DNA of 64,000 bases from Planctomycetota bacterium (GCA_045105235.1 JBGCDH010000023.1:21749-85748); one strand, 5' to 3'. Positions 2,373 through 43,385 are shown, counted from the stretch's first letter. Translations and numbers: made by a program. The notes: generated from the sequence alone by a model not told the origin.

Positions 2373-4169
2373 CTACAGAATCGTCACGTGCACGCTGTTC
2401 GTCAGTTCGACCGGCTGGTTTGCAAGCAGCCGCGCACTCTGGAAGAACAGCTCGGCGCCGTGCAGCGACGCGTCGACGGGCACCGCTAGCTGATACTGCG
2501 GCCCTGGCGTGCCGAGCACGTAGGCGTCGATCGAGATCGTGCCGTTGGGGTCGAGGTGCAGGTTGCGGTTGAAGCCGACCGGCGCGTCACCTTCGGCAAA
2601 AGCCGCAAACAGCCCCGCAATCGAGCCCGCGGGGCCGTCGATGGTCACGTCAATGCTGCCGCCGAGTTCGACGTCGGGCTCGGCCAGCGACAGTCCGTCG
2701 CGGATGCCGAGCACGTCGAAGATCTCGACCAGGTCGGGGCGTCGGCCAATCACGTCGGGCGTGTCCGGGCCGTAGGTGTGCAGCAGGTCCAGGATCTCTT
2801 GGTTGCTGAGCGTCGTGCCAAGCTGTCGCTTGCACGCGCCCTGGATGCACGCGATCACCGATGCGATGTGCGGCGTCGCCGACGACGTGCCGGTCGCCGA
2901 CTGCGTGTAGGCCTGCAGCGGATCCTGCCCCGGAAAGAACAGGTCGCCGTAGCCGCTCGCGATCACGCCATCGCCCCAGCTGTGCGCATCCACTCGCCCA
3001 CCCCAGTTGCTAAACACCGCGCGCTGCAGCGCACCACCCGCCGAGGCGCTGACGATCACGGCGCCCGAATCCCGGAAGCTGCGGCTGAAGCGGCCGAGCA
3101 GCGCCGGATCGTCGAGACTGCGGTTGCCGTTTCCCGACGGCGCGACCAGGTGGATATCCTGCGCGGTCACGGTCGCGACCGCGTCGTAGGCCGACTGGTA
3201 GAACTCGATCGGCAAGAACGTGCCCGGTCCGAGGCCCGGCACCAGCACCATCAGCACCAGCAGCGTGACGTCGCCGGGATCGCCTTCGACCGCGACCAAG
3301 GCCAGCGAGTCCGCGAGCCCGTTGTTGACGTCGATCGACAAGAAGCGGGCGTCGACCAAGTCCGAGATGCCGGTGATGCCAAACGCGTTGCGGTCGGCAA
3401 AGGAGATCGAAGCCCCCGAGAGGCCGTGGTTCGCCGTCGACAGCACCGGCGCCGGGATGACGCCGAGGAAGTTGCTGCTGACCAGCTTGCTGACGTCTTC
3501 GTGCCCGAGAATCCACGTGTTCTCGACCATGTAGAAGCCGACGTCCTGGCCGCGTGCGCCGAGCACGCTGTTGGCCATGCGGACGCCGTGGCCCACGGGA
3601 GATGCCGAATGCGCGAGCTGCTGCGCGACAAACGACGGCGTCGTCGGCGGCGGATCGTTTCCTTGCGGCGGCAGCGCAACGGGCGTCCGGTAAGAAGCCG
3701 GGTAGTAGATTGGCTCGCGGTAGGCGTGCGCCACCAGCGGCTCCTGCTGCAGCTGCTCGAGCAGGGCGTCGGCGGCGGCCGCATCGGCGCAGATCGCGCG
3801 ATACCAAAGGCCCAGGTGGCCGGGTCGGCTGCGCGCCGGCATCACCGCGCAGGCGTGGCGGTGCAGGCGATCGAGTTCGTCCCAGCTGACCGACGCCACC
3901 AGAGGCTGCACAAACGCACCCGCGGCCCGGCAGCGCTCCGTCACGGCGCGCAGGTCAACGCCGGTGCGCGACACAAAGTCGCCGTCCAGCCATTCGCCGC
4001 CCGAGCCCGCACGCAGCTGGAACTCGATTCGGTTGGTGTGGACCGCCGGCAGTTGCGCCGTCGGTTCTTGCGGGGCCGCCTGCGACACCAGCGCCGCGGG
4101 CAGCGCCAGAGACGCCAAGAGCGCCAGCAAACAAACGAACGCTCGGGTCTTCGATCGCATCGATAGCAT
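2373..4169 (-). CDS. Secreted S8 (subtilisin-like) serine peptidase with C-terminal beta domain
   Basis: Signal peptide, prodomain, HED-x, NHG, SGNG oxyanion region, FSNWG, GTSSATP nucleophile; start approximate. Confidence 0.85.
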   Translation of the reverse strand: MLSMRSKTRAFVCLLALLASLALPAALVSQAAPQEPTAQLPAVHTNRIEFQLRAGSGGEWLDGDFVSRTGVDLRAVTERCRAAGAFVQPLVASVSWDELDRLHRHACAVMPARSRPGHLGLWYRAICADAAAADALLEQLQQEPLVAHAYREPIYYPASYRTPVALPPQGNDPPPTTPSFVAQQLAHSASPVGHGVRMANSVLGARGQDVGFYMVENTWILGHEDVSKLVSSNFLGVIPAPVLSTANHGLSGASISFADRNAFGITGISDLVDARFLSIDVNNGLADSLALVAVEGDPGDVTLLVLMVLVPGLGPGTFLPIEFYQSAYDAVATVTAQDIHLVAPSGNGNRSLDDPALLGRFSRSFRDSGAVIVSASAGGALQRAVFSNWGGRVDAHSWGDGVIASGYGDLFFPGQDPLQAYTQSATGTSSATPHIASVIACIQGACKRQLGTTLSNQEILDLLHTYGPDTPDVIGRRPDLVEIFDVLGIRDGLSLAEPDVELGGSIDVTIDGPAGSIAGLFAAFAEGDAPVGFNRNLHLDPNGTISIDAYVLGTPGPQYQLAVPVDASLHGAELFFQSARLLANQPVELTNSVHVTIL

Positions 4170-4334
4170 CGTCGCCCCAGCGTAGCGCAACGGCGCAAGG
4201 ACGGAACCGGCGCCGGCGCCTGTTTCGTTGCTCGCGCAGCGAAGTTTCGTTGCGCGCGTCGCGAAACGGTCGAGCGCACGCCGCCGCCCGCATCCAGCCG
4301 GCGGCGGCGCGTCGGCCGGATGCAGGCGTCGGCG

Positions 4335-7220
4335 TCAGTTGCCGATCGTCGCGCGGCCCGCGTTGGACAGCACCAGGCCCGCCGCGTTGACGGCATCGAG
4401 GATCGCCCACTGGTGAAACAGCTCGGTGCCAATCAGGCCGGTGCTGCTCGGCACCGCGATCGACTGGCTGCCCGTTCCGGTCGCCGACGTGACGACGGCA
4501 TCGAGCACATCCGGCGCAACCAGCAGATCACAGCCAGGTGCACCCGGCAGCGGGGTCGGCAGCGCGCCACCGCTCCAGCTCGTGTCGGAAAGGCCCGACG
4601 CCAGCACCGCAAACGTGTTGGCAAGCGCGTCCGACAGCGTCAAATCGTAGCTAGCGCCGAGAATCGGCTCGCCCGCATTCGAAAGCGCCGGCACCGCAAA
4701 GTTCGGCCCGCCGGTGCACGAGACGCGGTACGACGGCCGCTGCACCAGACCCGACTGGCTCCAGCTGTTGTTGCCCACCGTGCGGAAGTAGCCGGTGCCC
4801 GACTGGCCCGACGACAGGTTGGAAATGATGCCGTCCGGCGAGTTCTCATAGCCAATGTAGAACGTGCCGTTGACCGCCACCGGCGTTGCAAACGTTGCCG
4901 TGTAGAAACCGGGCGTTGTGCCAACCGTCATCGTCACGCTCGCCAGCGGCGTGCTGTCCGGAACGCCGCCAACCTGCGCGTAGATGTGCGCGGGGCGCGT
5001 GATCGACGAACCGTTGTTGGACGCGGTGTAGACCTCAAAGCCCGTCACCTGCGCGCTGCCGATGCTCGGCACTTCGTAGGTGTATTCAAAGCCGTTGGTG
5101 CTGTTGGTGAGCGTGCCGCCGTTGGTGTTGAGCTCCGCGCAGAACGCCGACAGCGGCACCGAGCCGGGGCAACCCTGACCAAACGCAGCGAACGATGCGA
5201 ACGCCGGCGGGATGCCGGGCTGCCCATCGCCACCGACTACGACCAGCGAGTAGTCGGCGTCGACCGCCGCGGTCTCGACGTGGTTGTCGACAACGATCGA
5301 CGTGCCCTTGATGTCGACGTTCCATACACCGCTTTCGGGCGCATCGACAAACACGCACTCAAGCGAGTTGACGCTGTCTTCGCTGCCGCCAACAACCGAC
5401 CAAACGCCGTCTTCGAGGCCGTTGTTGCCCCAGTAGACGACACCGCTCGGCGACGTCACCCGCAGCGACAGGTCGTTGATCAGGTGCGCGGCGGCGGCGG
5501 GATTGGCCGCGGGCTCGAGCCAGTTGAGGCAGATCTTCAGCGACGGTTCGCCAGCCGCCACGGTCACTTCCCAGCGACTCGCCCCACCCTGCGGCAGCAC
5601 GTCGGTCTCGTCGACGATGAAGGTCTCGGCGCGCCGGTCCCACATGTTCTGCAGGTTCGGGAAGCCAAAGCCCTGGTGCTCGCGACGGTTGTCCGAGCTC
5701 GCCGCGGTAAACGCGTACTGGTTCGCGCTGACGACCTGCAGGGCCTTCAGCGTCGGCGCGTGCGGGCGGTTGGCGTGCGCGCCCGAGCCGGGGGCGCGCA
5801 GCACGTTGCCAAACGGACCGACGCCAGGTGTCGCCGAGTCGTCGGTGAACATCTGGATCGCCAACACGTTGTGGCCGGCCACAATCGGCGTCGCACCGGA
5901 CGTGCCGCCAAAGCTGTTGGAGAAGCCGCCGCCGACGGCCGACGTGCCGATGTTGTCGTAGTAGGCGCACAGCGTTGGCTTGAGGCGGCCATCGCTCGCT
6001 GGGCCGATGCTGGCACCACCGTTTTGCCACGAGTCATCGGCGGCGCTGCTGTTGTTGGCGTGGTTGACGCCACCGCACGAGAAGACGTTTTTCGCCCAGG
6101 CCTGCGGCCGCGAGTCCTGGTTGCCGGCGTTGGACTGCGACTGCGTCCAGGTGATGTCGTTATCAAACGTGATGTCGTCCGATTCGGCCGAGATCGACGT
6201 GTAGAAGAACGTGCGCGCGTTGCCCCACGAAGCCGTCGTGTGGCTGCAGTCGTGGATGTTGATCAGGTCGTTGAAGACCTGCCAGCGCGACGTCGTGACG
6301 CTGCCGTTGTTGGTGTAAAATTTGGTCGCATCCGGTGCCATGCCGCGCACGGCCGGGTTGGAGTTGCCGTTGCCAAAGACGATGCCGGCCGTGGCGTGGC
6401 CGTGGCCCGAAGACGCGCCGCCGCTGTTGACGTTGACGGCACCACCGGTGAAGTCTTGGTGCGAGGCCTCAATGCCTTCGTAGATGTGCGCGCCGATGCC
6501 GGTGCCGGTGTAGCCGACCTGCGCTTCGACATAGTTGCCGCCGCCCTGGATGCGGGCGTTGTCCATGTCCAGTTCGGGCGGCGACCAGCGATCGATCCAC
6601 AGCACTTCGTCAAAGCCTGCGACCTTCTGCAGCTGCGGGCCGGTCAGCGACGCTTCCAGCAGCAGACTGCCGGTTTGCTCGTGTTCGATGACGGCGCCCA
6701 TGGCGCGGATCTTGGCCATCAGGCCCGGCTTGTCCGTGTGCTTGTCGGCGACGACCAGGTTGTAGTGCACGGGCTGCGTGCCGCTCAGCACCTCGGCGTG
6801 CTGAAGCGCTGGCTCGAGCCGGTAGGCCGGATGGTAGCTGCCGAGCCAGCGCACCATCGGCAGCGCACGAACAGCCTGCTGCTGCGCCGCCGGCATGCGC
6901 ACGACGTAGGCGTTGTCGGGCAGGTAGCCGACGATCTTGCCGCCGAGTTCTTGCAGCGCGGTCCGGCCGAGTTCGCTCGGCGTGCCGTGGAACTGCACGA
7001 TCTGCAGACTCTGCGCGGCCGTGCTCTGCAGCAGCTCGGGCACCGCAGGCGAGCCCGTCAAAGGATCGAACGTCGCAAAACGCAGCTTCACAAAGCTGCC
7101 GGCTGCGGTCGCGTTCGGAGAAGAACTCGCGGAGGAGCGTGGTGCCTGGCCGATAGCGGCGGCACACGCCAATGCGAGAACACAGGCCGTCGTGAGGGCC
7201 GGCGTGGATGGATTGCGCAT
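4335..7220 (-). CDS. Secreted S8 serine peptidase with P/jelly-roll-like domain and C-terminal beta domain
   Basis: Signal peptide, GYLPDNAY prodomain, GHGHATAG, GPASDGRLKP, GGTSGATP, QGFG, INDLSLRVTSPSG; start approximate. Confidence 0.9.
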   Translation of the reverse strand: MRNPSTPALTTACVLALACAAAIGQAPRSSASSSPNATAAGSFVKLRFATFDPLTGSPAVPELLQSTAAQSLQIVQFHGTPSELGRTALQELGGKIVGYLPDNAYVVRMPAAQQQAVRALPMVRWLGSYHPAYRLEPALQHAEVLSGTQPVHYNLVVADKHTDKPGLMAKIRAMGAVIEHEQTGSLLLEASLTGPQLQKVAGFDEVLWIDRWSPPELDMDNARIQGGGNYVEAQVGYTGTGIGAHIYEGIEASHQDFTGGAVNVNSGGASSGHGHATAGIVFGNGNSNPAVRGMAPDATKFYTNNGSVTTSRWQVFNDLINIHDCSHTTASWGNARTFFYTSISAESDDITFDNDITWTQSQSNAGNQDSRPQAWAKNVFSCGGVNHANNSSAADDSWQNGGASIGPASDGRLKPTLCAYYDNIGTSAVGGGFSNSFGGTSGATPIVAGHNVLAIQMFTDDSATPGVGPFGNVLRAPGSGAHANRPHAPTLKALQVVSANQYAFTAASSDNRREHQGFGFPNLQNMWDRRAETFIVDETDVLPQGGASRWEVTVAAGEPSLKICLNWLEPAANPAAAAHLINDLSLRVTSPSGVVYWGNNGLEDGVWSVVGGSEDSVNSLECVFVDAPESGVWNVDIKGTSIVVDNHVETAAVDADYSLVVVGGDGQPGIPPAFASFAAFGQGCPGSVPLSAFCAELNTNGGTLTNSTNGFEYTYEVPSIGSAQVTGFEVYTASNNGSSITRPAHIYAQVGGVPDSTPLASVTMTVGTTPGFYTATFATPVAVNGTFYIGYENSPDGIISNLSSGQSGTGYFRTVGNNSWSQSGLVQRPSYRVSCTGGPNFAVPALSNAGEPILGASYDLTLSDALANTFAVLASGLSDTSWSGGALPTPLPGAPGCDLLVAPDVLDAVVTSATGTGSQSIAVPSSTGLIGTELFHQWAILDAVNAAGLVLSNAGRATIGN

Positions 7221-7398
7221 GAGAAGCAAGGAGGAGCCGGGGCAGGCTCCCGCGCATTCTAGCAATGTCTGTCCATCCGCGCTGGAAACCGAAAACTGTG
7301 CGGCGCGGAACCTGCCTCACAACGCCAGAACTCCTGCGAGGCTCCCGCGCCCTCTGACCATCCGTCACGAATCAGGCCGATGCCGCGTATCGCGCCCG

Positions 7399-9141
7399 CT
7401 AGCCCACGAGGTCCCAACGCCGCAAGACGTCCGCTACCTGCTTGGCGCGCAGCGGCTTGATGCAGAACATGTCCATGCCGCTCGCCAGGCAGTACTGCTC
7501 ATTGCCCGACGACGCGTCGGCCGTGAGCGCAACGATCGGCGTGCGCGCATCGCCTTGCTGGAGCTCGTGCTTGCGCATGTTCTGAGCCGCCGTGTAGCCG
7601 TCGACGATCGGCATCTGGCAATCCAAGAAGACCAGATCGAAGCTCTCGCGCGCAAACATCTCGGCCGCCTGCTGGCCATCGGCGACCTCCACGACGGCGC
7701 ACCCCATCTGGCGCAGGCGCTCGGCAAGCACGCGTCGATTGATTGGTGAGTCATCGGCGACCAGCACGCTCCGCCCCGAAGCGCGCAGCGCAGCCGGCTC
7801 GGCCGCGTCGCCGCCGTCCTTCGGTTGCGCCGGCGCCATCGCCGCCGCCAAAACCCGGGACAGCTCAGTCGGCCGCACGGGCTGCTGCATGATGCCGACG
7901 ACGCCCAGGCCTTCGTAGGTGTCGTCGTCATGCACGGCGGCCGGCGTCTCGATCAGGACGATCGGGTTGTCGACGTTGGCTGCGCGGATGCTGCGCAGCA
8001 CGGCCTGCGAATCGGTCGAGGCTTCGACAAACAGCAGGTCGCTTGGCTGCAGCCCGCGTAGATCATCCAAGACGACCCGCAGGCCCAGTTCTTCGAGATG
8101 CCCGGACAGCAGCCGCAGCGTGTTGAAGCGCGACGCCAGGATATGGGCGGTGCGCGGCGGCCCCGCGACGTCGGCTGGCGCGGCGCGCGCCGCATCCGCA
8201 CCCGCATCCGCCGCACCCGATGCAACCCGGGCCCGCTTGAGCGGCACCCGTGCGGCAAACACGCTGCCTTCGCCCGGGGTGCTCGAGCATGTGATTTCGC
8301 CTCCCATCAGCTCGACAAATTGCCGGCTGATCGTCAGGCCGAGGCCCGTGCCGCCGTAGCGCCGCGTCGTCGAGGCATCCGCCTGCACAAACGGCTGAAA
8401 CAGCCGTTCGGCCACATCGCGATCAAAGCCGCGGCCCGTGTCGCCGACTTCAAAGATCGTCGAAGCACAGCTCTCTTCCGCACAGCGCGCCGAAAGGCTG
8501 ACAAAGCCGCTGTCGGTAAACTTGACCGCGTTGGCGCCGAGATTGAGCAACACCTGGCGCAGCCGCACGCGATCGCCGAGCACATACCGTGGCAGCGTCG
8601 GGCACAAATCAAACAGCAGCTCAACGCCCTTGTCCTCGGCCTGCACGTGCAGCAGCTGCACCACGGACTCGCACGTCTCCCACAGATCGAACCGCTCGTG
8701 CTCGAGCTCGATGGCCTCGGCCTCGGCCTTGGAGAAGTTCAACACCTGGTTGACGAGGTCCAAGAACGACTCCGCCGTGGTCACCACCGCCCGCACCCGA
8801 TCGCGCTGCTGCTCCGAGAGCTGCCCGGCCATGATCAGCTCGGACATGCCGATGATGCCGCTGATCGGCGTGCGCAGCTCGTGGCTCATGTTGGCGAGAA
8901 AGCGCGACTTCTGCTTCGAAGCCTCTTCTGCCGCTGCCAGCGCGCGCGCGATCTCCTTGTTCTGGACCTCAAGATCGAGCGTGCGTTGCTCGGTCATCTC
9001 AACCAGCTGCATCGCCGCGTGTACGTTCGCCGACACCACCTCGGTCTTCTCGAGCCGCAGGCGCTGGTTCTCCGCGCGCAGCTCTTCGCACTGTTGGCGG
9101 AGCGCCTGGCACTCGTTTTGTTGATCGTCAGAGGAGGTCAT
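7399..9141 (-). CDS. Cytoplasmic hybrid histidine kinase (coiled coil-HisKA-HATPase-pseudoREC-REC)
   Basis: ANMSHELRTP H-box, NLGANAVKFT N-box, DTGRG, GGTGLGL, C-terminal receiver VADD...FLDCQMP...LTA...KP; no TM or PAS domain seen. Confidence 0.93.
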   Translation of the reverse strand: MTSSDDQQNECQALRQQCEELRAENQRLRLEKTEVVSANVHAAMQLVEMTEQRTLDLEVQNKEIARALAAAEEASKQKSRFLANMSHELRTPISGIIGMSELIMAGQLSEQQRDRVRAVVTTAESFLDLVNQVLNFSKAEAEAIELEHERFDLWETCESVVQLLHVQAEDKGVELLFDLCPTLPRYVLGDRVRLRQVLLNLGANAVKFTDSGFVSLSARCAEESCASTIFEVGDTGRGFDRDVAERLFQPFVQADASTTRRYGGTGLGLTISRQFVELMGGEITCSSTPGEGSVFAARVPLKRARVASGAADAGADAARAAPADVAGPPRTAHILASRFNTLRLLSGHLEELGLRVVLDDLRGLQPSDLLFVEASTDSQAVLRSIRAANVDNPIVLIETPAAVHDDDTYEGLGVVGIMQQPVRPTELSRVLAAAMAPAQPKDGGDAAEPAALRASGRSVLVADDSPINRRVLAERLRQMGCAVVEVADGQQAAEMFARESFDLVFLDCQMPIVDGYTAAQNMRKHELQQGDARTPIVALTADASSGNEQYCLASGMDMFCIKPLRAKQVADVLRRWDLVG

Positions 9142-9168
9142 GAGCTTCGTCGCAGCACCGCAGGCCTC

Positions 9169-9612
9169 TCAGAACGTGACCGTCGGCACACCGGCTGCGA
9201 CACCTTCGACAAACTCGGCGAGCCCAGACACCTTCATCGTGGCGCCGATCGTCGCCGCCGAGCCGGGAACGGCCGCCGCCACCGCTCCGTCGGTCAGAGC
9301 GCCGCCGACCGCGTCCAGACGGTCCCAGGCGTTCCCGCAGTGCTCGGTCACGCATGATGAGCAGCATCGAATCACAACGCCCATCGCCTCCAGCTGGTCG
9401 AGCAGGGCATAGACGCGATCTCCAACAGCACGGCGCGGCTCGCACGCCCACTTGGTGGCGTCGAGCACCAAAAAGACCCGAACGCTCAAGCCAGAGGCAG
9501 CTGCCGCGAGCGCCGCCTCGAGTGCCAAGCACGCACGTGGGATATCCGCGGGACCGCTGGTCGCGACGATCTGGATCCGGCGCGGAGCCGCTTCACTTGC
9601 CGAGATTTCCAT
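9169..9612 (-). CDS. DsrE/DsrF-family protein
   Basis: IVATSGP...A...V.VFLVLDA fold pattern, CCSSC motif, ends VTF*. Confidence 0.8.
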   Translation of the reverse strand: MEISASEAAPRRIQIVATSGPADIPRACLALEAALAAAASGLSVRVFLVLDATKWACEPRRAVGDRVYALLDQLEAMGVVIRCCSSCVTEHCGNAWDRLDAVGGALTDGAVAAAVPGSAATIGATMKVSGLAEFVEGVAAGVPTVTF

Positions 9613-10269
9613 TCAGAGCACCATCGCCACTTTGGCATCGCAAGCCGCTTCGAGGCATGCTGCCGCGCCACCGAGCTCCGCCGAGTTGCGCATCTCTTCG
9701 AGTCGAAACCCCATCATCTGCATGGACGCTTCACAGACGACGAGCTCCACGCCAAGGGCTTCGGCCGTCTCGATGTGCTGTTCGAGCGAGGGCATGCCAA
9801 GCCGGCGCATGCGCCACCGAATCAGGCAGCCGCCGAAACCACCAAAGTTCATGCGCGACATGGGCAGCGCGCGGCTGCCAACCGGCACCATCCAGCCAAA
9901 CATGCGCTCGATGAAGCTCTTGCCGCGTCCGCTGCGCCTGCAGCGCAACGCAGAAACACCCCAGAACGCGAAGAACATCCGCGTCTGCAAGCCGCTCGCC
10001 GCCGCTGCGTTGGCGAGCGTGAAAGCGAGCAGGTGCTTATCGAGGTCCCCACTAAAGACAACGAACGTCGAAGCCTTGGATGTTTGCGCGGCGTCTGCGT
10101 CTGCGTCTGCGTCCGCACGGGCCCCCTCGCCGCCAACCGCGCGGCACTCGCGACACTCGCGCAACTTGGCACCAGCTGCCATTTGCGTCACCAACCCGGC
10201 CGGCACTTCTGACCGATCGGATACGCCGTTCGGCGCGGCCAGATCGCGGCTCATCGCGTCGCTGTTCAT
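9613..10269 (-). CDS. DsrE2-type (DsrE/F/DrsH-like) sulfur-relay protein
   Basis: VFSGDLDK, MFFAFWG, LPMSRMNFGGFG, CEASMQMMG; ATG overlaps the tusA stop (ATGA). Confidence 0.88.
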   Translation of the reverse strand: MNSDAMSRDLAAPNGVSDRSEVPAGLVTQMAAGAKLRECRECRAVGGEGARADADADADAAQTSKASTFVVFSGDLDKHLLAFTLANAAAASGLQTRMFFAFWGVSALRCRRSGRGKSFIERMFGWMVPVGSRALPMSRMNFGGFGGCLIRWRMRRLGMPSLEQHIETAEALGVELVVCEASMQMMGFRLEEMRNSAELGGAAACLEAACDAKVAMVL

Positions 10270-10484
10270 TGCGCCTTCCGGATCACGGCTCGCTTCGTCG
10301 CCCCGTCTTCCACATCGACGAGCACGTGCCCAGTCATCCGCGACCAGGCTTCGAGGTCCGGCAAGAACGCGGCGTCGCACGCCTCAATGGCAATCTGATC
10401 CCCGACCGCCACACGACGAATCGCCAGGGACAGCTGAACGATCGGCATGGGACACCGGAGGCTGCGACAGTCGAGCCTTTCCAT
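10266..10484 (-). CDS. TusA/SirA-family sulfur carrier
   Basis: LDCRSLRCPMP motif, D...DLEAW...GH pattern, about 72 aa. Confidence 0.88.
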   Translation of the reverse strand: MERLDCRSLRCPMPIVQLSLAIRRVAVGDQIAIEACDAAFLPDLEAWSRMTGHVLVDVEDGATKRAVIRKAQ

Positions 10485-10491
10485 GCCGGAG

Positions 10492-10499
10492 ATATCGGC
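10492..10499 (-). promoter_or_regulatory. Putative sigma28-like -10 element (GCCGATAT), leaderless promoter of the tusA operon
   Basis: GCCGATAT lies 7 nt upstream of the tusA ATG; weak TACAG -35 candidate; no Shine-Dalgarno. Confidence 0.4.
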
Positions 10500-10725
10500 A
10501 TCCGGAGGTTCTTCCTGTACCAGAGAACGACACAAGCGCTCCGTCCGCGCCGGCAGAAACCTGTCCCGCGCCATCATCCACGCGATGGCATCGCAACTTT
10601 CGGCTCGTCCAAGAGCCGAGCCGGCGCCGCGAGCTGCGCGCCTCATTCTTAAGACAGCGGCCCGCGGGGACCCACTTGGGCCGTGGCCGACCGGCTGCCG
10701 CGCGTCCAGCCGCGGCCTGCCCTAC

Positions 10726-15815: not shown

Positions 15816-17387
15816 TCACTTGCCAAGACAGAAGCGACCGTAGATTCGGTCGAGCAGCTGCTCGGGCGAATGGCTGCCGCCAATGCCGTCCAGGGCCCGC
15901 AATGCCGCCTGCAGCTCGACCGCGGCCAGCTCCGGAGCGATTTTTGCCGCCCGCAGGGATTCGGTGAGCGCTGCATGCGCGGCCTGCAGGGCCGATCGCA
16001 GCGGGGCGCCGGCGTCGACGCCGCCGCTGTTCGTGCCGCCGCCGCCGCCGAGAGCCAAGAAGGCCTCGCGCAGCGCCGGCAGCCCGTCACCAGTGGTCGC
16101 ACTGGTCGCAAACACGCGGCCGCTTGGCGAGGGCAGGCGGGCGCAGGCGGCTGCGGGCAGCCTGTGCTGGAGGGCCGCGCCGTGCGGATGGCCGCCTTCG
16201 CCTGCCCCCGGCAAGAGGTCGCACTTGCTAAAGACCACGCCCCACCACGGCAGCGGCGAGCGGTAGGCAAACTCCGGGATGCGCGGGTTGGTGGCGTCGA
16301 GCACGACCAGCAGGGCCGCCGCCCGCCCGGCCAGACGTTCGCGCAGCGCCAGGGCGCTGCGGTCGGCGGCCCCCGGATCGTCGAGATCGCCCGGGGCATC
16401 CCAGAGCCGCATCGCGCCGCCGGTGCCGTCCGTCGGTCCGGGTTCGCGTGCGGCGGCGTCGGCGGATGTAGCTCCGGCTGCGGCTGGCGGGCCAAGCGGA
16501 ACGCGGATCTGGAGCAGGTCGCGCGTCGTGCCCGCCACGTCGGCGACCAGCGCCTGCTCGCGGCCGGCCAGCGCGTTGGCCAGCGACGACTTGCCGGCGT
16601 TGGCGTGGCCGACCAGCAGCAACTCGCCGCCGGGGCTCGCAATCGGCAGCGACCGCACCAGCTGGTCGAGCTTCTGTTCGAGCGGCAGCAGCGGATCCCG
16701 CCATTGGCCGGTGGGCACCGCGCCGGTGTCGTCTTCGTCAAAGTCGAGGCCGACTTCGAGCAGCGCGAGCTGATCCTGCAGCTGGCGGCGCACGTCGGCG
16801 ACTTCGTCGGACAGGCCGCCGCGCAGCCACTGCACCGCCGCCGCCGCTTCACGCCGATCGGATGCGTGCAGGAGCAGCAGCAGCCCCTCGACTTGCGCCA
16901 GGTCCATGCGGCCGTTGCGGCACGCGCGCGCCGTAAACTCTCCCGGCAGGGCTTCGCGCACGCCCGCCGCGCGGCCGTCGCGCACCAGCTGCTCCTGCAG
17001 CAACCGCACCAGCAACGGGCTGCCCGGCACGTGCAGCTCGACGATGTCTTCGCCGGTGAAGGAACGCGGTCCGGGCATGGTCAGCGCGATCGCTTCGAGT
17101 TCGGCGGACGGCGATTCGACGGGCGAGGATGCGCTAGCCGGCGACCCGGTTTGCGGCGACCCGGTCGCAGGCGAATCCGTCGCAGCAGGCGACTCCTCAG
17201 CAGGCGTCAGCGCACGCGCCACGACCGACAGCCGCACACTGCCGCGCTGCTGGCCGCGTGCGCGGCTGAGCGCCGGCGCAAACACCCGCGCCGCGGCCTC
17301 AAACGCTCGCGGCCCCGACAGACGGATCACGGCGCGTTCGCTCGCGCCTTGGGCGCTGGCCAGGGCCACAATCGTGTCCCCGATCAT
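15816..17387 (-). CDS. mnmE: tRNA modification GTPase MnmE (TrmE)
   Basis: DTIVALAS, IRLSG, PRSFTGED..E, GEFT.RA..NG, GHANAGKSS, GTTRD, C-terminal FCLGK. Confidence 0.93.
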   Translation of the reverse strand: MIGDTIVALASAQGASERAVIRLSGPRAFEAAARVFAPALSRARGQQRGSVRLSVVARALTPAEESPAATDSPATGSPQTGSPASASSPVESPSAELEAIALTMPGPRSFTGEDIVELHVPGSPLLVRLLQEQLVRDGRAAGVREALPGEFTARACRNGRMDLAQVEGLLLLLHASDRREAAAAVQWLRGGLSDEVADVRRQLQDQLALLEVGLDFDEDDTGAVPTGQWRDPLLPLEQKLDQLVRSLPIASPGGELLLVGHANAGKSSLANALAGREQALVADVAGTTRDLLQIRVPLGPPAAAGATSADAAAREPGPTDGTGGAMRLWDAPGDLDDPGAADRSALALRERLAGRAAALLVVLDATNPRIPEFAYRSPLPWWGVVFSKCDLLPGAGEGGHPHGAALQHRLPAAACARLPSPSGRVFATSATTGDGLPALREAFLALGGGGGTNSGGVDAGAPLRSALQAAHAALTESLRAAKIAPELAAVELQAALRALDGIGGSHSPEQLLDRIYGRFCLGK

Positions 17388-17546: not shown

Positions 17547-20500
17547 CTAGGACTGCACAAAGCGCCACAGGCCAAACGAGCCGGCGACGTACAGCTCGGG
17601 AAGCTGGGCCGGATCGCCATCCAGATCGGCGACCACGATGCTGTTGTGCATGCCGGCCGCACCCGGCACGTGGCTGCGCCAACGCGTCGCCAGCGTCTCG
17701 GCGTCGAGCACCAGCACGTCGCCCGCCAGCGTCGTCACGATCAGCTCGTCGCGAGCCGGCCCACTCGCTTCGGGCAGCAGATCCGCCACGCACATGCCCA
17801 CGACGCCGTAGCCGCCACGATCGCCACGATCGCCACGATCGCCGAGATCGCCGGCGGCCGCGGCCGCGTCGGGAACAAGCCGCCGCTGCGCTTCGAGGGC
17901 AAAGCTGCCGGCACCGGCCGACGACCAGCGCAGCCGCTGCACGCTGCCCGTCGCAACCTCGAAGTCGCGCAACCTGCCGTTCGACGAACGACCGCCGTAG
18001 GCCCGCGGCAGCGGCGTCGGTCCGTAGACCGTGCCGAACCAGACCATCAGGTCGTCGCCGCGAACCGCGACCGCCAGCGCGCCGCCGCCAAAGCCGTAGT
18101 CCTCGGAGGACGACACCGCACCAAGTGCATGCCCGGCCGACGGCGTACCCATCTGCGGACGCAGCACCCGCACGCGCCCGCCGGGGCAGCCGAGCGCGAG
18201 CACCACTTCGCCCGATGCGAGCTGGCGCGCCGCCAGCGCCTGATGGTTCATGATCGGGACCTGCGTCACGAAGCTGCGCAACGGCAAGAACGGCAAAAAG
18301 CTCGCGGTGGTCGCAGACTCTTCGTGCCCGGTCGACGCCCACAGCCCGGCGACGTCAAACGGTCCCGCAGCGGACGGAAAGCGCACCCCTTCGACGAGGT
18401 TGCCCCACGTATCGCGGCCGATGCCGTCGCTGCGCGCCGACCAATAGTAGACATCGCGCGGCGCAGCGCTGCCGTTCGCCGTTTGCACATCGAGCACATC
18501 ACCGCCCATGCGGTGCGCGACGAAGCCTTCGAAGACGCAGCTCCCGGCGGACCCGCGCCGCCAGTTGTCGGGCAGCGTGTTGGTCTCCGCGTCTTCGTAG
18601 CCAAGGTGGAACACGTCCGTCGGACACCACGGCTTGGTCACGATCTTGGTCGCGCCGGACGGCGCGCGAATCGCGACGCGCTCGCTGCCGTAGCGCGTGC
18701 TGACAATCGGCTGCGTTGCGCCCGACGCGTTGCGGTTGCCGAGGTCTTGCCAGCCGCGGATGCCGGCAAGGGACGGATCGCCGTTGCGGTAGCGGGCGGC
18801 GGCGGCGGCGGAATCGCTGGCGGTCGGCACGCGCCAGTAGCCACCGCGGCGATCGAGCACATGCAGCTGCTGTTCGCCGGCACGGCGCGCGATGGCCCAG
18901 GTCGCGGCCAGAGCTTGGTTGGTGTGCGGCAGGCTGCCGTCTTGATCTCCCGAGCGGCCTTCGCGACCCGATGCGTCTTCGCGACCCCGTGCATCTTCGC
19001 GGCCCCGTGCGTCTTCGCGGCCCGATGCAGCTTCGCCGTCTGGCCGAACCGGAGAGTAGCGAGCCGGCAGAGCGGCCGCCGCGAACGACGCCGCAACCGG
19101 CAGCAGCGCGCCCGGCATCGGAAACTGCAGGACCGGCTGTGCGGTGACCTCAAGCAGATCGTTGATGTGCAGCCACATCAGCGATCCCGACTGGCTCGCG
19201 ACCACCACTTCTTGATCGTAGGGGCCGTCGCTGCCTGCCAGGTTGTTGTCGACCAGCTCACCGACCGCCAGCGCATGCGTCTGCAGACCCGCCGGCTGGT
19301 AGATTGTCGCGCCCGCCGTCAAGAACAGGATCTTCTGCGCGAGCTGGCGGCCGAACTGGTCGTACAGCGACAGGTTGTCGTTGTGCAGCAGGAGCAGGTG
19401 TTCGCCCTTGCGATCGCCGGGGTCGGAAGAACTGTTCGGGCTGGCCGCTGCCGGCTGGCGACAAGTTGCGATGCGCAGGCCCCCGGTGCCGCCGAGGAGC
19501 GGCCTGGCGCCGACGACATAGCTGGTGCCGGCGCGCGCCGGCGGCAGATACGCGCGCACCGCTACGCCGTCTTCGTCGCCTGACCACAGACCGACCAGAG
19601 CGTCGACGTAGCCCTGCCCGGCGATGCGCCAATCGGCCTGCAGGAGCGCCAGATCGTGCGGAGTGCCCTGACACGGTGGATCCGTCATCACGTTGGTGGC
19701 GGCATCCGGGTCGAGCAGGCGCTCGGGAATGGGCCGACTGATCGTGTGCACGCGGGGCGCAAACAGAGCGGGATCCTGCAGCTCCTGCGGTTCAAAGAGA
19801 ACCTCCGCCACCACGCCCCGGCGCGATTGGATCGCGACCTTCTGGCCGCGCACCACAAAGTCAACAATGCCGGGCTCGGGCCATTCGTAGATCGGCGCAA
19901 ACGTCGCGGCGTCGTAGAACACCAGGCCGCCGTGCACCGACGCGAAGACCACCTGCTCGGGGCGGCCGGGCAGCACGCTCGCGACCTTGAGGTGGTGCGG
20001 CCGCGCGCAGGCCCACGGCAGCTCGACGGTCTGCAGGACCTGCAGCGAATCGATCGCCAGGCGATGCAGGTGGCGGCGGGTTGCGACCAGCAGTTCGGAG
20101 CCGCTGCGCCCGCCTGCGAAGACCGCCAGACCGGTCGCCTCGTGGCCGAGTGCGCGCGGCAGCGTGCGGCCCACGGCCGGCAAACTCGGATCGGCGCCGG
20201 GGAGCAAGCCATCGTTGCTGTGGGCAACCTTGACGAGCTGGCCGCCGCGCACCGGCACGCCGGTGTCGTCGGTATCGACCGCAAAGGCACAGACCACGCC
20301 TTCGATCCCCGCGACGTAGACGCGGCCATCGTGGATGAGCATGGCTTCCTTGTGGCCAAGCCACGTGCCCGCTGCCCCCGGCTGGGTCCGCGCAAACCAC
20401 TCGTCGTCGCGACGCAGTGGGGTGCTTGCGCCGGTCGGCGTGCTCGCCGCGGCCGGCATCGAATCGCCGACGCGGCCGAGCGCCCATTCGTGCGGGTTGT

Positions 20501-22103
20501 CGAGCGCCCGCAGCGACGGCCCCGGCGGCTCGCTCGCGACCGGCGGGATCGGCGACAGCTCGCCGCGATCCAGCTGTCGCCGGCGGTTGTCGATGGCCCG
20601 CACGATGACTTCGTGCACCAGCGGATGCAGGTGCCTGACGGGATCGCCGCCGTAGGGACTGTCAAAGCGAGAGCCTTCGCCGTGGCAGGTGTTTTCGGCC
20701 ACCGACCAGGCCAGCTCGCTGCCAACCGGCCACAGGCGCCGCCCCGTCGCGGCGCGCACACCGGCACTCGTGGGGCCGGCGGCTACGGCAGCTCCGGCGG
20801 CCAGCTGCGCCCAATCGGTACCGGTCGACGTGATGTCTTCGTCGCCGACCACGAAGCACGCGGGTCGGTGCACGTCACCACGCTCAAAGCGACGGAGATA
20901 CGACAGGTCGTGGATCCAGCGGTTCTGTCCCCACGTGTACTGGCCCCAATCGAGCAGGTCGTGTTCGTCGACAGTCGCACCGCGATCGGCCGAGCCGCCG
21001 AGCATGCCAAAGGCAAAGCCGAGGTCGTGCTCTCCCAGCAGGCGCTGGATGCTCGGGTGGATCACCGAACAAAACGCGCCGTGGATGCGCTCGGGATAAC
21101 GCATCAGCGCCCAGCTGGTTTGGTGGCCGCCGTTGCTGCCGCCGGCAAACACCGTGACGACGTCGCGCTCGACGCTGCGCCCCGGACCTTGCGCCGACAG
21201 CCGGTGCTGGGCGCCGATCGGGTTGCGCGCGCTGTTGTCCTGCAGCAGCAGTTCGACGGCAGTCAGCAGCTGCATACTGCGCTGTTCGTTGCAGGTCGTC
21301 TGGCGCCGCGCCACCGTCGGCACGGCGTAGGCGATGATCGGGTAGTAGCTCGCATCGGGCGCGGGGGCCGCCAACAGGTCGGCGTAGCCGGTCGGCCGTC
21401 GGACCGTGCTTGCGCCGACGTTGTCGCGGAAGCCATCGGCGGACCGCGACAGCTCGGGACGCGTCAGCCCATCGGGGCTGAAGTAGCCCTGGTAGATCTG
21501 GAACCACGACAGCACCCGGCCCTGGTGGTCGCGCGGAAACGCCGTGGTCTCCCAGTTGAACACCACGATCACGACCTTGTCGTGCACCGCCGGGTCGTAG
21601 TCCTGCTGCGGCCGGAACAGCTCAAAGGCCGCCTGGTCGACATAGGCGCCCACCGCGCCGTAGAGCGGGTGTGCGGTCGGCAGCGACACGCCCGCGGGCC
21701 GCAGGTAGCCGACCAACCGCTGCATCGGCACACCGGGCGGAACCGGACCAAACGGCTCGTTCCAGAGATACGGCTGCCAGCCGGCCGGCGCGTGCACGTC
21801 CGAGAGGGTCACATCCCGCCCATCATCCGATGAAAACCAACCGCCATAGTCGATGTCCGATTGGCCCGCCGGCGCAAAGCCCTCGCCGTGGTTCCAGCGA
21901 GGCAGTGGCTCTGCATACTGAACGCGCGGCGCGGAGCCGTTGCGCAATGCCCCAGGGGCTGGCTCGGCAATGCCGGGGTGCACGCGGCGGGAGCCGCCGG
22001 TGGCGGGAGCTGGAACCTGCGCGGGCGCGGTGGCTGTCAGCGCTAGGGCAGCAGCGAGCGAAAGCGCGAAGGCGCGAGACATGACGAGGGAGGCATGGCG
22101 CAC
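17547..22103 (-). CDS. Large secreted hypothetical protein (alpha/beta-hydrolase-like N-half, beta-propeller-like C-half)
   Basis: Signal peptide; FAGGSNGG nucleophile-elbow motif; VADL/DLDGD...EL repeats near the C-terminus. Confidence 0.7.
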   Translation of the reverse strand: MRHASLVMSRAFALSLAAALALTATAPAQVPAPATGGSRRVHPGIAEPAPGALRNGSAPRVQYAEPLPRWNHGEGFAPAGQSDIDYGGWFSSDDGRDVTLSDVHAPAGWQPYLWNEPFGPVPPGVPMQRLVGYLRPAGVSLPTAHPLYGAVGAYVDQAAFELFRPQQDYDPAVHDKVVIVVFNWETTAFPRDHQGRVLSWFQIYQGYFSPDGLTRPELSRSADGFRDNVGASTVRRPTGYADLLAAPAPDASYYPIIAYAVPTVARRQTTCNEQRSMQLLTAVELLLQDNSARNPIGAQHRLSAQGPGRSVERDVVTVFAGGSNGGHQTSWALMRYPERIHGAFCSVIHPSIQRLLGEHDLGFAFGMLGGSADRGATVDEHDLLDWGQYTWGQNRWIHDLSYLRRFERGDVHRPACFVVGDEDITSTGTDWAQLAAGAAVAAGPTSAGVRAATGRRLWPVGSELAWSVAENTCHGEGSRFDSPYGGDPVRHLHPLVHEVIVRAIDNRRRQLDRGELSPIPPVASEPPGPSLRALDNPHEWALGRVGDSMPAAASTPTGASTPLRRDDEWFARTQPGAAGTWLGHKEAMLIHDGRVYVAGIEGVVCAFAVDTDDTGVPVRGGQLVKVAHSNDGLLPGADPSLPAVGRTLPRALGHEATGLAVFAGGRSGSELLVATRRHLHRLAIDSLQVLQTVELPWACARPHHLKVASVLPGRPEQVVFASVHGGLVFYDAATFAPIYEWPEPGIVDFVVRGQKVAIQSRRGVVAEVLFEPQELQDPALFAPRVHTISRPIPERLLDPDAATNVMTDPPCQGTPHDLALLQADWRIAGQGYVDALVGLWSGDEDGVAVRAYLPPARAGTSYVVGARPLLGGTGGLRIATCRQPAAASPNSSSDPGDRKGEHLLLLHNDNLSLYDQFGRQLAQKILFLTAGATIYQPAGLQTHALAVGELVDNNLAGSDGPYDQEVVVASQSGSLMWLHINDLLEVTAQPVLQFPMPGALLPVAASFAAAALPARYSPVRPDGEAASGREDARGREDARGREDASGREGRSGDQDGSLPHTNQALAATWAIARRAGEQQLHVLDRRGGYWRVPTASDSAAAAARYRNGDPSLAGIRGWQDLGNRNASGATQPIVSTRYGSERVAIRAPSGATKIVTKPWCPTDVFHLGYEDAETNTLPDNWRRGSAGSCVFEGFVAHRMGGDVLDVQTANGSAAPRDVYYWSARSDGIGRDTWGNLVEGVRFPSAAGPFDVAGLWASTGHEESATTASFLPFLPLRSFVTQVPIMNHQALAARQLASGEVVLALGCPGGRVRVLRPQMGTPSAGHALGAVSSSEDYGFGGGALAVAVRGDDLMVWFGTVYGPTPLPRAYGGRSSNGRLRDFEVATGSVQRLRWSSAGAGSFALEAQRRLVPDAAAAAGDLGDRGDRGDRGGYGVVGMCVADLLPEASGPARDELIVTTLAGDVLVLDAETLATRWRSHVPGAAGMHNSIVVADLDGDPAQLPELYVAGSFGLWRFVQS

Positions 22104-40870: not shown

Positions 40871-41391
40871 TACCGCATCATCTCCGTCAACAGCGCACGC
40901 CACCCGGACTCGTTGATTGCGTCGTCCTGCAGGCGCCGAACCTGCGCTTTGCCGCGCGCGGGGTCGACGACCAGCAGGCATCCACCGGCCCGTTCCGCCT
41001 TGCCATCGAGTTGCCCTCCGTAGGCCATGCCAAGCGCGTAGGTAGCGTCTTTGAGCGCCGCCAGGTTTTCCGCACCGATCTTGCCGCCATTGCCGAGCAT
41101 GCAGCCGCCGCCCGCCAGACGAACGACCAGCTGACGTGGATCGGCACCGTTCTGAATTGCGAGATCGCGCGCGTGTGGCGCCGCTCGATCGGCGAAGTAG
41201 CCGAGCCCCATGCCAGCGCCGTGGCCCGTCGGTCGCACGACGTGAGCCAAGACAGCCACCTGGTTGCGCAGGTCCTGAACAATCATGCCGACGCAGGACC
41301 CCAGCAGGGTCGTCAGGACCTGCGGCGGCCCGGCGGCAGCAACGCCTCCCATCGGAACCTGAATCAAGCGCGGTTCATCAATGACGTTCAT
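40870..41391 (-). CDS. cheD: Chemoreceptor glutamine deamidase CheD
   Basis: TLLGSCVG, LAHV, FAD, AGGG.M, IG.EN. Confidence 0.88.
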   Translation of the reverse strand: MNVIDEPRLIQVPMGGVAAAGPPQVLTTLLGSCVGMIVQDLRNQVAVLAHVVRPTGHGAGMGLGYFADRAAPHARDLAIQNGADPRQLVVRLAGGGCMLGNGGKIGAENLAALKDATYALGMAYGGQLDGKAERAGGCLLVVDPARGKAQVRRLQDDAINESGWRALLTEMMR

Positions 41392-41395
41392 ATCC

Positions 41396-43306
41396 TCACA
41401 CCAGCGCCGGCGGATTCGTCGCCATGCTGCTCATGCCCTGCCGCTTCATCGCAAAGTCCGCAAAGCCATTGGGGTCCAGAATCAGCGTGACCTTGCCATC
41501 GCCGCGAATCGCCATACCGGCGAGGCCCGCGATCCCCGTCAGCTCGGCACAGAGCGGCTTGATCACGAGGTCCTCCTTGCCAACGATTCGATCGACGCCA
41601 AGAGCGACTTCCTCTCCTTGGTTGCCAAACACAATGGCATGCTCTGGTTCGCGCACGTCCCCAGGATCTGCCTGCTGCGCAAACCGATACGTCATGGGGA
41701 GCTGGACGAACGGCATGGGCTGTTCGCGCACGACGACCACGGGGCGCGATTGCACGGAGCGAACGCACACCTTGCGCAACTCGACAATTTCGCGCACCTC
41801 CGTTAGCGGCAGCGCAAACATGGTGCCGCGCACCTCAAGCAACAGGCTCGCCAGAATCGACATACTCGGCGGCAACTGAACCGTAAAACGGCTGCCGCTC
41901 CCCACCCTGGAATCCAGCTCGAGGCTGCCACGCAGCCCTTTGATGGTCGCGGCAACGATGTCCATTCCCATGCCGCGACCGGAGACCTCGGTGACCTCTG
42001 CCGCCGTCGAAAACCCAGGGTGAAAGATCTGCTTTTGCGCCTCGCGGTCGGGCAACTGCGCCGCATCGCTTTCGCTCATCAACTCAAGTTCGACCACCTT
42101 GCGGCGCATGCGCTCCGGGTCGATGCCGCCGCCGTCGTCCTCGAGGTCGATGACCACGGTGCTGCCACGCTGCGAGCCACAAACACGCACAACACCACGA
42201 GCCGGCTTGCCGGCGGCTTCGCGAGCCGCCTCGCCCTCGATGCCATGGTCGATCGAGTTGCGCAGCATGTGCACAAGTGGATTGATCAGCTCGTCGGCAA
42301 CCCGCTTGTCGATCTGCGTCTCTCCGCCTTGCACCTCAAAGTCGACCGGCTTGCCAAGCGACTCTGCCGTATCGCGAGCCACGCGCTGCAGTCGCTTGAA
42401 CACGCTGTCCAGCGGCACCATGCGCAGCTGGAGCACGGCTTCATGGATGCCGCCGGCAACGCTATCCAGATCGTAGGCGACGTCATCTAGGTCCCGCATC
42501 GAGCGACCGACTCCGACCAGCTCTTCGAAGCAGTTCTGAACCCGCAGGAGCGCGCCTTCAAGGCGTGCCACGACGCTGTTGAGCTTTTCCCCGCCGGGCC
42601 GGCTTGCCGAACTTTCGTCGCTGCACTCTACTTCGCGCAGATCTGCGAGCCCCGCTTCGACGTCGCGCCAGTGACGCGAGACATCGTCGAGCTGCGCCAG
42701 CGGCGCCAGCTGCCGTGCGACCAGCTGAAAGCGCGACCGAGCGATGACCAGCTCGCCCGTAAGGTTGACCATTCGATCGAGGCGCTCCATGCGCACCCGC
42801 ACCGTTTCGTTGGCCTCAGACATTGCCGGCTGGTTGCCAGCGGGGCGCGGCGCCCCCTTCGCAACACCGGCGCCTTTCGCCCCATCTTCGGCGTTGGCGC
42901 CACTCGCGAGCTGGCCCGAGCACGCCCGCTCAAGATCTGCGAGCACCAGCTCACTCGACGCCACCTCCTGCCCACCCGCTGCGACCTCAGCGGTCAAGCT
43001 GCTGATCAGGTCGATCGCATCAAACATCGTGCGGCAGACGGGCGTCGTCGGCCGCAGTTCACCATCGCGAATCTTGCAGAGCAAGCTCTCGAGATGGTGC
43101 GTGACGCGATTGGTTGTTTCAAACCCGAAGCACGCCGACAGCCCCTTGAGCGAATGCGCGCTACGGAACAGCTCATTGACCTGCTCTGCGGGCCACGCGA
43201 CTTCGCCTTCGGCCAGCTCCATCAGGATGCCGTTGAGCTGTTCGAGATAGTCGTGCGCTTCGCCGAGATAGTCGGCGATCAGATCTTCATTGCCATCGAC
43301 GGTCAT
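41396..43306 (-). CDS. cheA: Chemotaxis histidine kinase CheA (no P2 domain evident)
   Basis: FRSAHSLKG Hpt, TVRV..ERLD, HMLRNSIDHGIE, DDGGG, SGRGMGMD, C-terminal CheW domain. Confidence 0.95.
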   Translation of the reverse strand: MTVDGNEDLIADYLGEAHDYLEQLNGILMELAEGEVAWPAEQVNELFRSAHSLKGLSACFGFETTNRVTHHLESLLCKIRDGELRPTTPVCRTMFDAIDLISSLTAEVAAGGQEVASSELVLADLERACSGQLASGANAEDGAKGAGVAKGAPRPAGNQPAMSEANETVRVRMERLDRMVNLTGELVIARSRFQLVARQLAPLAQLDDVSRHWRDVEAGLADLREVECSDESSASRPGGEKLNSVVARLEGALLRVQNCFEELVGVGRSMRDLDDVAYDLDSVAGGIHEAVLQLRMVPLDSVFKRLQRVARDTAESLGKPVDFEVQGGETQIDKRVADELINPLVHMLRNSIDHGIEGEAAREAAGKPARGVVRVCGSQRGSTVVIDLEDDGGGIDPERMRRKVVELELMSESDAAQLPDREAQKQIFHPGFSTAAEVTEVSGRGMGMDIVAATIKGLRGSLELDSRVGSGSRFTVQLPPSMSILASLLLEVRGTMFALPLTEVREIVELRKVCVRSVQSRPVVVVREQPMPFVQLPMTYRFAQQADPGDVREPEHAIVFGNQGEEVALGVDRIVGKEDLVIKPLCAELTGIAGLAGMAIRGDGKVTLILDPNGFADFAMKRQGMSSMATNPPALV

Positions 43307-43385
43307 CAGCAGCTCCCTGTTTCCCCCGTTTCATCTCACCGCTGCAACGCCGCGCCGCTCCGCGCCACGCCGCGCCGGCTCGCCA

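Follow-up and report, generated by a model that had tools for sequence, protein, structure and literature searches.

Why should a cluster of genes for small sulfur carriers end in a gene for a histidine kinase that lacks a sensor domain? The question arises from a 64,000-nucleotide stretch of DNA of a Planctomycetota bacterium (GCA_045105235.1 JBGCDH010000023.1:21749-85748), hereafter the window, in which a first-pass annotation had described a TusA carrier, a DsrE2 protein, a DsrE protein and a hybrid kinase encoded by four coupled genes, and had proposed that the three small proteins form a detachable module reporting sulfane-sulfur or redox status to the kinase. The open reading frame (ORF) map confirmed the four genes, all on the minus strand:

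10266..10484, minus strand: tusA, 72 amino acids, starting with MERLDC (Pfam TusA, 5.2e-15; motif CPMP)
9613..10269, minus strand: dsrE2 (DsrE2B/3pnx-like), 218 amino acids (PF13686, DrsE_2, 2e-34; motif VVCEASM)
9169..9612, minus strand: DsrE3A-like gene, 147 amino acids (PF02635, DsrE, 9.4e-10; motif CCSSC)
7399..9141, minus strand: soluble hybrid histidine kinase, 580 amino acids (Pfam, AlphaFold model and alignments)

The junctions between these genes are as tight as had been described: the tusA stop and the dsrE2 start overlap in an ATGA at 10266-10269, the dsrE2 stop abuts the start of the DsrE3A-like gene (TGAATG at 9610-9615), and a gap of 27 nt (9142-9168) precedes the kinase ATG. TusA, DsrE2 and DsrE3 together have the composition of the sHdr/rDsr sulfur-transferase sets, here without those enzymes nearby. 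Among the 38 window ORFs scanned with Pfam, which were picked by a GC3 filter that small ORFs may escape, there was no match to the rhodanese, Hdr, Dsr, SQR-like or CoA-persulfide-reductase families, in agreement with the first-pass annotation, which had seen no sulfur-oxidising or related gene beside the unit. The source assembly (G000), a planctomycete genome that is 89.5% complete, contains a single TusA match and a single PF13686 match, both being the window copies, one clear and one weak DsrE match, and three rhodanese domains, all on contigs other than that of the window; YeeE, DsrC and SoxY gave no match in this assembly. No metabolic acceptor for a TusA/DsrE2 relay is evident in G000.

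The arrangement recurs in other genomes. A survey of gene neighbourhoods for kinase and GGDEF partners, of the kind that the first-pass annotation had suggested, returned 16 loci at which a signalling protein bearing a common N-terminal helix motif is encoded in one cluster with tusA (the window, G024, L020, L021, L022, L023, L025, L035, L036, G410, G398, G166, G384, G081, G319 and G057). An intact dsrE2 is present at 15 of these 16 loci and the DsrE3A-like gene at 11, being missing from G398, G384, G081, G319 and G057. The usual partner is a hybrid kinase, replaced at one locus by a kinase without receiver (G081) and at another by a PAS-GGDEF-EAL protein (G319). Recurrent linkage of this kind, as seen by comparative genomics, speaks for a detachable sensory module, though not for the trio as its unit, since TusA and DsrE2 are the constant members and the CCSSC protein is the dispensable one.

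The linkage was found from several starting points. With the DsrE3A-like alignment, a scan of a genome collection gave six loci, all labelled Planctomycetota or uncultured, and tblastn showed the order tusA-dsrE2-dsrE-kinase at all of them (a contig end truncates one of the kinases, and one of the loci lies on the G024 contig already mentioned). A metagenome scan with the kinase N-terminus alone gave two contigs, both with all four genes; one with the DsrE3A-like alignment (the first one) gave no match. Kinase orthologues among 41 related genomes are confined to G007 and G024 (53% and 46% identity), and G024 has all four genes. In a 401-genome sample of the phylum, the helix profile A8 matched strongly in G000, G410, G398 and G396, and G410 and G398 also carry the carriers; a DsrE3A-like query matched five of these 401 genomes, including G410 and G166, where the match belongs to a unit, and G273 and G083, where it is weak and does not. 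Five contexts can be told apart among the flanks: fumarase, Band 7 and methyltransferase genes at three related loci; ECF sigma factors; UPF0167 with a Ser/Thr kinase; volactin with a TonB receptor; and SMC with S8 peptidases in the window. On the G024 contig, a short masked run (L014, ~9230-9260; X in translations) breaks the TonB-dependent receptor gene upstream of the unit. Because the arrangement recurs in other genomes with different flanks, it is far beyond chance. Non-conservation in relatives had been named as a finding that would speak against the proposal; the kinase is kept there beside tusA and dsrE.

What do the signalling proteins have in common that the carriers might address? 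As had been predicted, the window kinase is a cytoplasmic hybrid kinase for which Pfam gave no transmembrane, PAS, GAF or other input domain. Its Pfam domains are HisKA (77-142), HATPase_c (189-302) and Response_reg (459-572), and the overall order is N-terminal helix, DHp (His87), CA, pseudo-receiver and receiver (Asp507), with the following elements:

8914..9141, minus strand: N-terminal helical extension, residues 1-76, no known input domain, continuous with DHp helix 1
8998..9030, minus strand: helix motif ANVHAAMQLVE, residues 38-48
7837..8151, minus strand: putative pseudo-receiver, residues 331-435, (beta-alpha)5 in the AlphaFold model, no Pfam match
7426..7767, minus strand: receiver domain, residues 459-572 (Response_reg, 6.6e-23), Asp507 in FLDCQMP

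The boxes that define a HisKA-type hybrid kinase were all located (H87, NLGANA, DTGRG, GGTGLG and D507), and H87 is invariant in an alignment of 14 kinases. None of the named hybrid kinases of NCBIfam (BarA, TorS, NahK/ErcS and others) was matched at its cut-off, the best being BarA with 358 bits against 890; near_NosP_CTERM scored 139 bits against 400. Residues 331-435 are interpreted from the model as a pseudo-receiver, in which Glu373 occupies the position of the acceptor Asp; the shorter kinases encoded in G410, G398 and G384 lack this region and show a gap there in the alignment. In the AlphaFold model of the kinase (predicted local distance difference test, pLDDT, 78), one helix spans residues 3-104 and runs into DHp. 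It contains the two cysteines C11 and C18 and the segment VSANVHAAMQLVEM (residues 36-49), which had been noticed in the first pass as features of an N-terminal coiled coil. Where a kinase has no additional domain, its HisKA begins at residue 71-79.

The motif on this helix has the general form A-x-[VA]-[HNYR]-[AS]-[AT]-x-x-[LMI]-x-x-[LM]. It could be aligned by pattern in 13 of 15 proteins, the other two (L020 and L023) having ANVHAA and missing the last position; A38 is invariant and A42 nearly so in the 14 kinases, and the motif lies three heptads farther from DHp in the clade of the window than in G166, G384 and G081. The check proposed earlier, whether the segment co-occurs with dsrE, came out in its favour, as the segment is specific and accompanies tusA/dsrE2 whatever the output domain, including PAS-GGDEF-EAL. 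A profile of kinase residues 1-61 gave three strong matches (G000, G007 and G024) in the 41 related genomes, each of which has 10-48 kinase matches; neither a carrier nor a kinase is encoded near its four marginal matches (E 0.003-0.009). The helix profile retrieved 21 proteins from a set of 5.8 billion, of which 20 are kinases of 555-592 amino acids or fragments and the last is a ZapB coiled coil (E 8e-4); all nine named matches that carry a taxon belong to Planctomycetota. A single-sequence search with residues 1-76 returned the query itself only.

More distant loci show how far order and output may change. PF13686 matched in 55 of the 401 genomes, and among the 30 best PF13686 loci a stand-alone dsrE2 adjoins a kinase gene in G000, G410, G398, G384, G166 and G081. 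G398 has tusA, dsrE2 and the kinase without a third DsrE gene, tusA-dsrE2 is divergent from the kinase in G384 and G166, and G081 has the order dsrE2-tusA-kinase. In G319, 14 nt separate dsrE2 from the next gene, which encodes a 930-amino-acid PAS-GGDEF-EAL protein whose N-terminal region carries AQADAIVHSAEIIDELE, close to the motif of the G081 kinase; the sole TusA of this genome is encoded ~380 nt past the stop of that gene, on the other strand. On the DsrE2 tree, the proteins from G319 and G081 form a sister pair (99/97). A profile of four distant motifs found G057 (E 2.5e-7), a genome absent from its input, where a 772-amino-acid hybrid kinase consists of the motif, a ~170-residue unannotated stretch and HisKA, and where tusA ends 4 nt upstream. 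Judged from the protein sequences, the helix motif is shown to be portable between kinase and GGDEF-EAL outputs.

Further features were observed around these variants. Many of the 30 best PF13686 matches lie inside frames of ~600-860 amino acids (L037-L047), several with a TusA-like stretch just before the DsrE2 domain, and these are probably multidomain persulfide-handling fusion proteins. The G166 kinase (L034 8557-10794) has its own C-terminal Hpt domain, and the G081 kinase (L068 7462-8388) is encoded near a HAMP kinase and a receiver-ATPase protein. In G398, a 1008-amino-acid sigma-54 activator with at least three PAS domains and no receiver (L066 755-3778) is divergent from tusA, with a single-domain receiver beyond; this activator is a possible output partner and is not kept in G410, the sister genome.

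The same variation bears on an explanation by linkage without direct coupling, according to which the genes would be co-expressed under one stress or co-inherited as a mobile cassette, their proteins never touching. The sporadic distribution fits block gain and loss, the kinase being present in 2 of 15 genomes of the genus and the unit in ~2% of the sampled planctomycete genomes. However, order, orientation (same strand, divergent or convergent) and output domain vary, yet motif and carriers stay together, which is hard to explain by shared inheritance alone, and we consider linkage without direct coupling improbable.

The carriers themselves possess the cysteines expected from sulfur-transfer proteins of their families. 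TusA scores 55.5 bits against PF01206 (gathering cut-off 28.6) and only 31 bits against the E. coli TusA equivalog NF001423 of NCBIfam (cut-off 78); by these scores it is a member of the TusA family and not an orthologue of the E. coli type. Its active-site Cys11, in CPMP, is invariant in the 13 sequences aligned, within CP(M/L)P in general and CLAP in the G398 variant, and a second cysteine five residues before it, Cys6 (DC), is present in 12 of the 13, including one TusA without kinase link (L070). DsrE2 scores 119 bits against PF13686 (cut-off 25) and 48.4 bits against the DsrE2 equivalog NF047629, below its cut-off of 210. It has a variable N-terminal tail and a single invariant Cys (VVCEAS, in a C-x-x-S loop; 11 of 11 sequences), and its profile is nearest to the solved structure 3pnx (1.2e-37), followed by DsrE2B 2qs7 (1.1e-23).

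The third protein adopts the DsrE/YchN/TusD fold in its AlphaFold model (pLDDT 82), with 1jx7, 3mc3, 2hy5_A and 2d1p_A as top Foldseek matches, that is YchN, 3mc3, DsrE and TusD. It has five cysteines (Cys57, 83, 84, 87 and 92) with a core made of C84-S-x-C87 and C92. The profile of its family matches the archaeal DsrE3A structure 3mc3 (3.9e-8), and the profile alignment places C84 on the active Cys of TusD and DsrE and C84/C92 on the Cx7C of 3mc3, so that the protein combines the DsrE fold and the Cx7C by which DsrE3A is recognised; the C84-x-x-C87 pair is common to YchN. The family is small, with five proteins in the 5.8-billion-protein set; across the 14 members compared, C84 and C87 never vary, and C92, C57 and C83 are present in 13, 12 and 10 members, respectively. 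A metal or Fe-S site in this multi-Cys protein was considered and set aside, as only C84 and C87 are invariant and they stand at the DsrE/YchN active-site position. A complex prediction with kinase residues 1-145 (two copies) and the DsrE3A-like protein gave a score of 0.00, which speaks neither for nor against binding; the gene of this partner is optional across loci.

These cysteines could be read differently, the unit sensing thiol-disulfide redox or oxidants instead of sulfane sulfur, with the CSxC of the DsrE3A-like protein and C6/C11 of TusA as disulfide switches. The invariant CxxC at the DsrE active-site position, the two cysteines five residues apart in nearly all TusA sequences and the lack of matches to sulfur-oxidation markers in G000 are all in line with this. 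The CSxC protein is nevertheless missing at five of the 16 loci, the second TusA cysteine is found as well in the L070 protein, encoded beside a cysteine desulfurase and without kinase, and the single conserved cysteine of DsrE2, a constant member, suits persulfide carriage better than a disulfide switch. A purely redox-sensing unit is accordingly given little weight.

Since conservation concerns the carrier cysteines and a helix motif at the input end of the signalling enzymes, the most economical reading is an accessory-sensor system. On the strength of comparative genomics, we thus propose, as a reading about which we are evenly divided, that TusA and DsrE2, with or without the DsrE3A-like protein, may act as a detachable accessory sulfur or redox sensor of sensor-less signalling enzymes; with the same balance of confidence and doubt, sensor and enzyme would make up a cytoplasmic signalling unit of three or four components. 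TusA and DsrE2, aided in many lineages by the DsrE3A-like CSxC protein, would sample sulfane sulfur in the cytoplasm, be it persulfide, polysulfide or thiosulfonate. Whether one of the carriers is loaded or unloaded, or oxidised or reduced, would be read via protein contact with the short helix motif. The carrier read would most likely be DsrE2 or TusA, because both are constant across loci. As the helix runs straight into DHp helix 1, docking on it could switch autophosphorylation at His87, from which the phosphoryl group would pass to Asp507 and on to an Hpt protein and a response regulator encoded elsewhere; G000 has eleven Hpt matches, one of them inside the CheA of the window. We infer the binding, the identity of the binding carrier, the nature of the signal and its direction, as an input and not an output. 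A more specific version is offered only tentatively: the helix A-x-V-H-[AS]-A-x-x-L-x-E-L might be a portable receiver on which persulfide-loaded DsrE2 or TusA docks, feeding phosphorelay and c-di-GMP signalling. If so, the carrier proteins themselves would be the receptor, rather than a ligand-binding domain or a regulator cysteine.

The direction of the signal could also be the opposite one. Two-component genes often adjoin genes under their control, and the carriers might thus be the output or client of a kinase that is fed by another signal and controls the activity or expression of TusA/DsrE2, the genes being co-transcribed with their regulator. Besides that common genomic habit, a response regulator or Hpt protein is not encoded beside the unit in most loci, so that the output could be local. 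Such a scheme leaves the signal source still missing, since no input domain is seen in the kinases; the element common to the kinases and the GGDEF-EAL protein is an N-terminal helix, the usual input side, and in G000 no acceptor pathway is seen that a regulated relay could feed. We therefore hold the carriers to be a sensor with more confidence than we hold them to be a client, which appears unlikely.

Several observations weigh against the accessory-sensor proposal, at least in part. The first-pass annotation had offered persulfidation of the kinase coil as one way of coupling; C11 and C18 are not conserved in eight orthologues and no cysteine is invariant in the 14 kinases, and for this reason we reject it. 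Without an invariant cysteine, the kinase is itself an unlikely acceptor of sulfur, and a non-covalent coupling has to be assumed. At G057, the only DsrE2-like sequence is a 65-amino-acid frame before tusA (L086 4739-4933, starting LIVFSGELDK...), seen by eye; PF13686 matched nowhere in that genome, this frame included, and the frame seems to be either the remains of a dsrE2 gene in decay or the product of faulty assembly. Motif-bearing kinases of G007 and G396 may be real exceptions. PF13686 gave no match in these fragmented assemblies (84% and 88% complete), TusA gave none in G007 and one below cut-off in G396, and no end of a DsrE-like gene was seen in the 190 nt upstream of the G007 kinase. 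Neither genome can be scored, because the contigs end 190 and 71 nt upstream of the respective kinase and the assemblies are fragmented and incomplete. Five weaker A8 matches (E 1e-4 to 0.01) lie outside the linkage tally.

Stand-alone dsrE2 is furthermore found in ordinary sulfur contexts without signalling proteins: with a rhodanese-metallo-beta-lactamase protein and a TusA-DsrE2 fusion in G407, as cysteine desulfurase-dsrE2-tusA in G140 and G090, and with a flavoprotein and DsrC in G227. In a DsrE2 tree of 31 rows, from which duplicates of included loci (L048, L051, L052, L054, L055, L057 and L069) and partial or weak matches (L060-L065) were left out, the 14 signalling-linked proteins fall in one weakly supported group of 18 with four stand-alone sulfur-context genes. 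The signalling label needs three changes on this tree, and none of 500 shuffles does as well; one change is obtained in 0% of the bootstrap trees, so that a single origin of signalling-linked DsrE2 is not supported. Lastly, all cases come from one phylum, in which kin are not independent.

The surroundings of the unit in the window complete the picture. This DNA is G+C-rich (~62-73%), and the unit is preceded by the following element:

10485..10725, minus strand: spacer from the SMC stop to the tusA start, 241 nt, candidate promoter region of the four-gene unit

The placement of a candidate promoter in this spacer derives from the ORF map; the promoter scan gave no sigma-70-like site, and the scan for terminator-like sites gave three against 2.0 expected. 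SMC, NrdR and MnmE are encoded upstream of the unit and two S8 peptidases downstream, with housekeeping genes and a chemotaxis cluster farther out. The S8 subtilase genes (2373-4190 and 4335-7265, minus strand; 605 and 976 amino acids) lie directly 3' of the kinase on the same strand and encode secreted-looking proteins, the larger with a weak DUF4082 match; they are not kept beside the unit at other loci. The chemotaxis cluster (40873-45661, minus strand) comprises a CheD-like gene, CheA (41399-43306, with Hpt, dimerisation, ATPase and CheW domains), a PAS-containing MCP and CheW. The codon-position G+C signal of an ORF of ~1480-1518 amino acids at 17547-22103 (minus strand) is good, and the ORF matched no Pfam family at E<=1e-4. 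Genes for tRNA modification occur near two units, MnmE in the window (15816-17387) and MnmA two genes past the G384 kinase (L067 10159-11208). In E. coli, the MnmA thiolation pathway is supplied by TusA; a connection of the unit with tRNA thiolation was considered and rejected, the proximity of MnmE or MnmA not being kept across loci.

The locus offers a concrete, testable case for two-component and c-di-GMP networks that would read cytoplasmic sulfur status. To our knowledge, persulfide or sulfane sulfur is sensed in the known cases by transcription factors, through modification of their own cysteines. The unit consists of three small soluble proteins with defined cysteines and a soluble kinase whose sole candidate input is a helix of 76 residues; in its natural variants the output domain is exchanged or the third carrier is missing. 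The proposal would also suggest what TusA/DsrE2 pairs probably do in bacteria where no pathway of sulfur oxidation is seen. The first-pass annotation knew of no characterised system of this type, and no description of sulfur carriers as kinase partners was found in the open full text of the literature, a scope outside which subscription-only papers and supplements fall.

How does the unit compare with known systems, as far as the cited reports describe them? In protein families and active-site cysteines it resembles the TusA-DsrE2-DsrE3 sulfur-transferase sets of sHdr/rDsr sulfur oxidisers, which include archaeal DsrE3A (3mc3) and DsrE2B (2qs7); DsrE3A is described as a homotrimer that transfers thiosulfonate to TusA (PMC11094781). 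Those sets are encoded beside genes for sHdr, Dsr or rhodanese and supply an oxidising enzyme (PMC11094781), whereas here none of these genes is nearby, DsrC and SoxY gave no match in G000, and the third protein adds a CxxC of the YchN kind. A TusA-type carrier as signal donor to a regulator has been proposed for SoxT1B-TusA-SoxR/sHdrR of Hyphomicrobium denitrificans, the authors stating that loading by TusA is not yet shown (PMC11582611). In that system, an ArsR-type repressor serves as the regulator, with two cysteines becoming joined by a sulfur bridge, and the signal is fed in by a YeeE-like channel (PMC11582611), while the receiver proposed here is a kinase or GGDEF-EAL protein without conserved cysteine, DsrE2 is constant and YeeE gave no match in G000.

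Within the sources consulted, the nearest published case is NreB of Bacillus licheniformis, where a sulfur cluster is under the control of YrkD and NreBC and NreB senses sulfide via its own PAS [2Fe-2S] domain (PMC9918477). There too, a histidine kinase that responds to sulfur species is encoded within a cluster holding TusA/DsrE-type genes; the Bacillus cluster also encodes SQR and PDO, in contrast to the present unit, with its kinase devoid of a sensor domain and no oxidising enzymes. A parallel in architecture is given by the stand-alone H-NOX and NosP sensors, which partner kinases (HnoX-HnoK, NosP-NahK) or GGDEF/EAL enzymes (PMC8846402). As there, a separate small gene for a sensor, here a putative one, accompanies a cytoplasmic kinase that lacks its own sensor domain, the arrangement of an accessory-sensor gene, and one type of sensor is associated with kinase or c-di-GMP partners, here hybrid kinases and one PAS-GGDEF-EAL protein. 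In place of a haem or FIST protein, the planctomycete unit has two or three Cys-based sulfur carriers; its proposed signal is sulfane sulfur or redox status instead of nitric oxide, and its proposed docking site is a short N-terminal helix.

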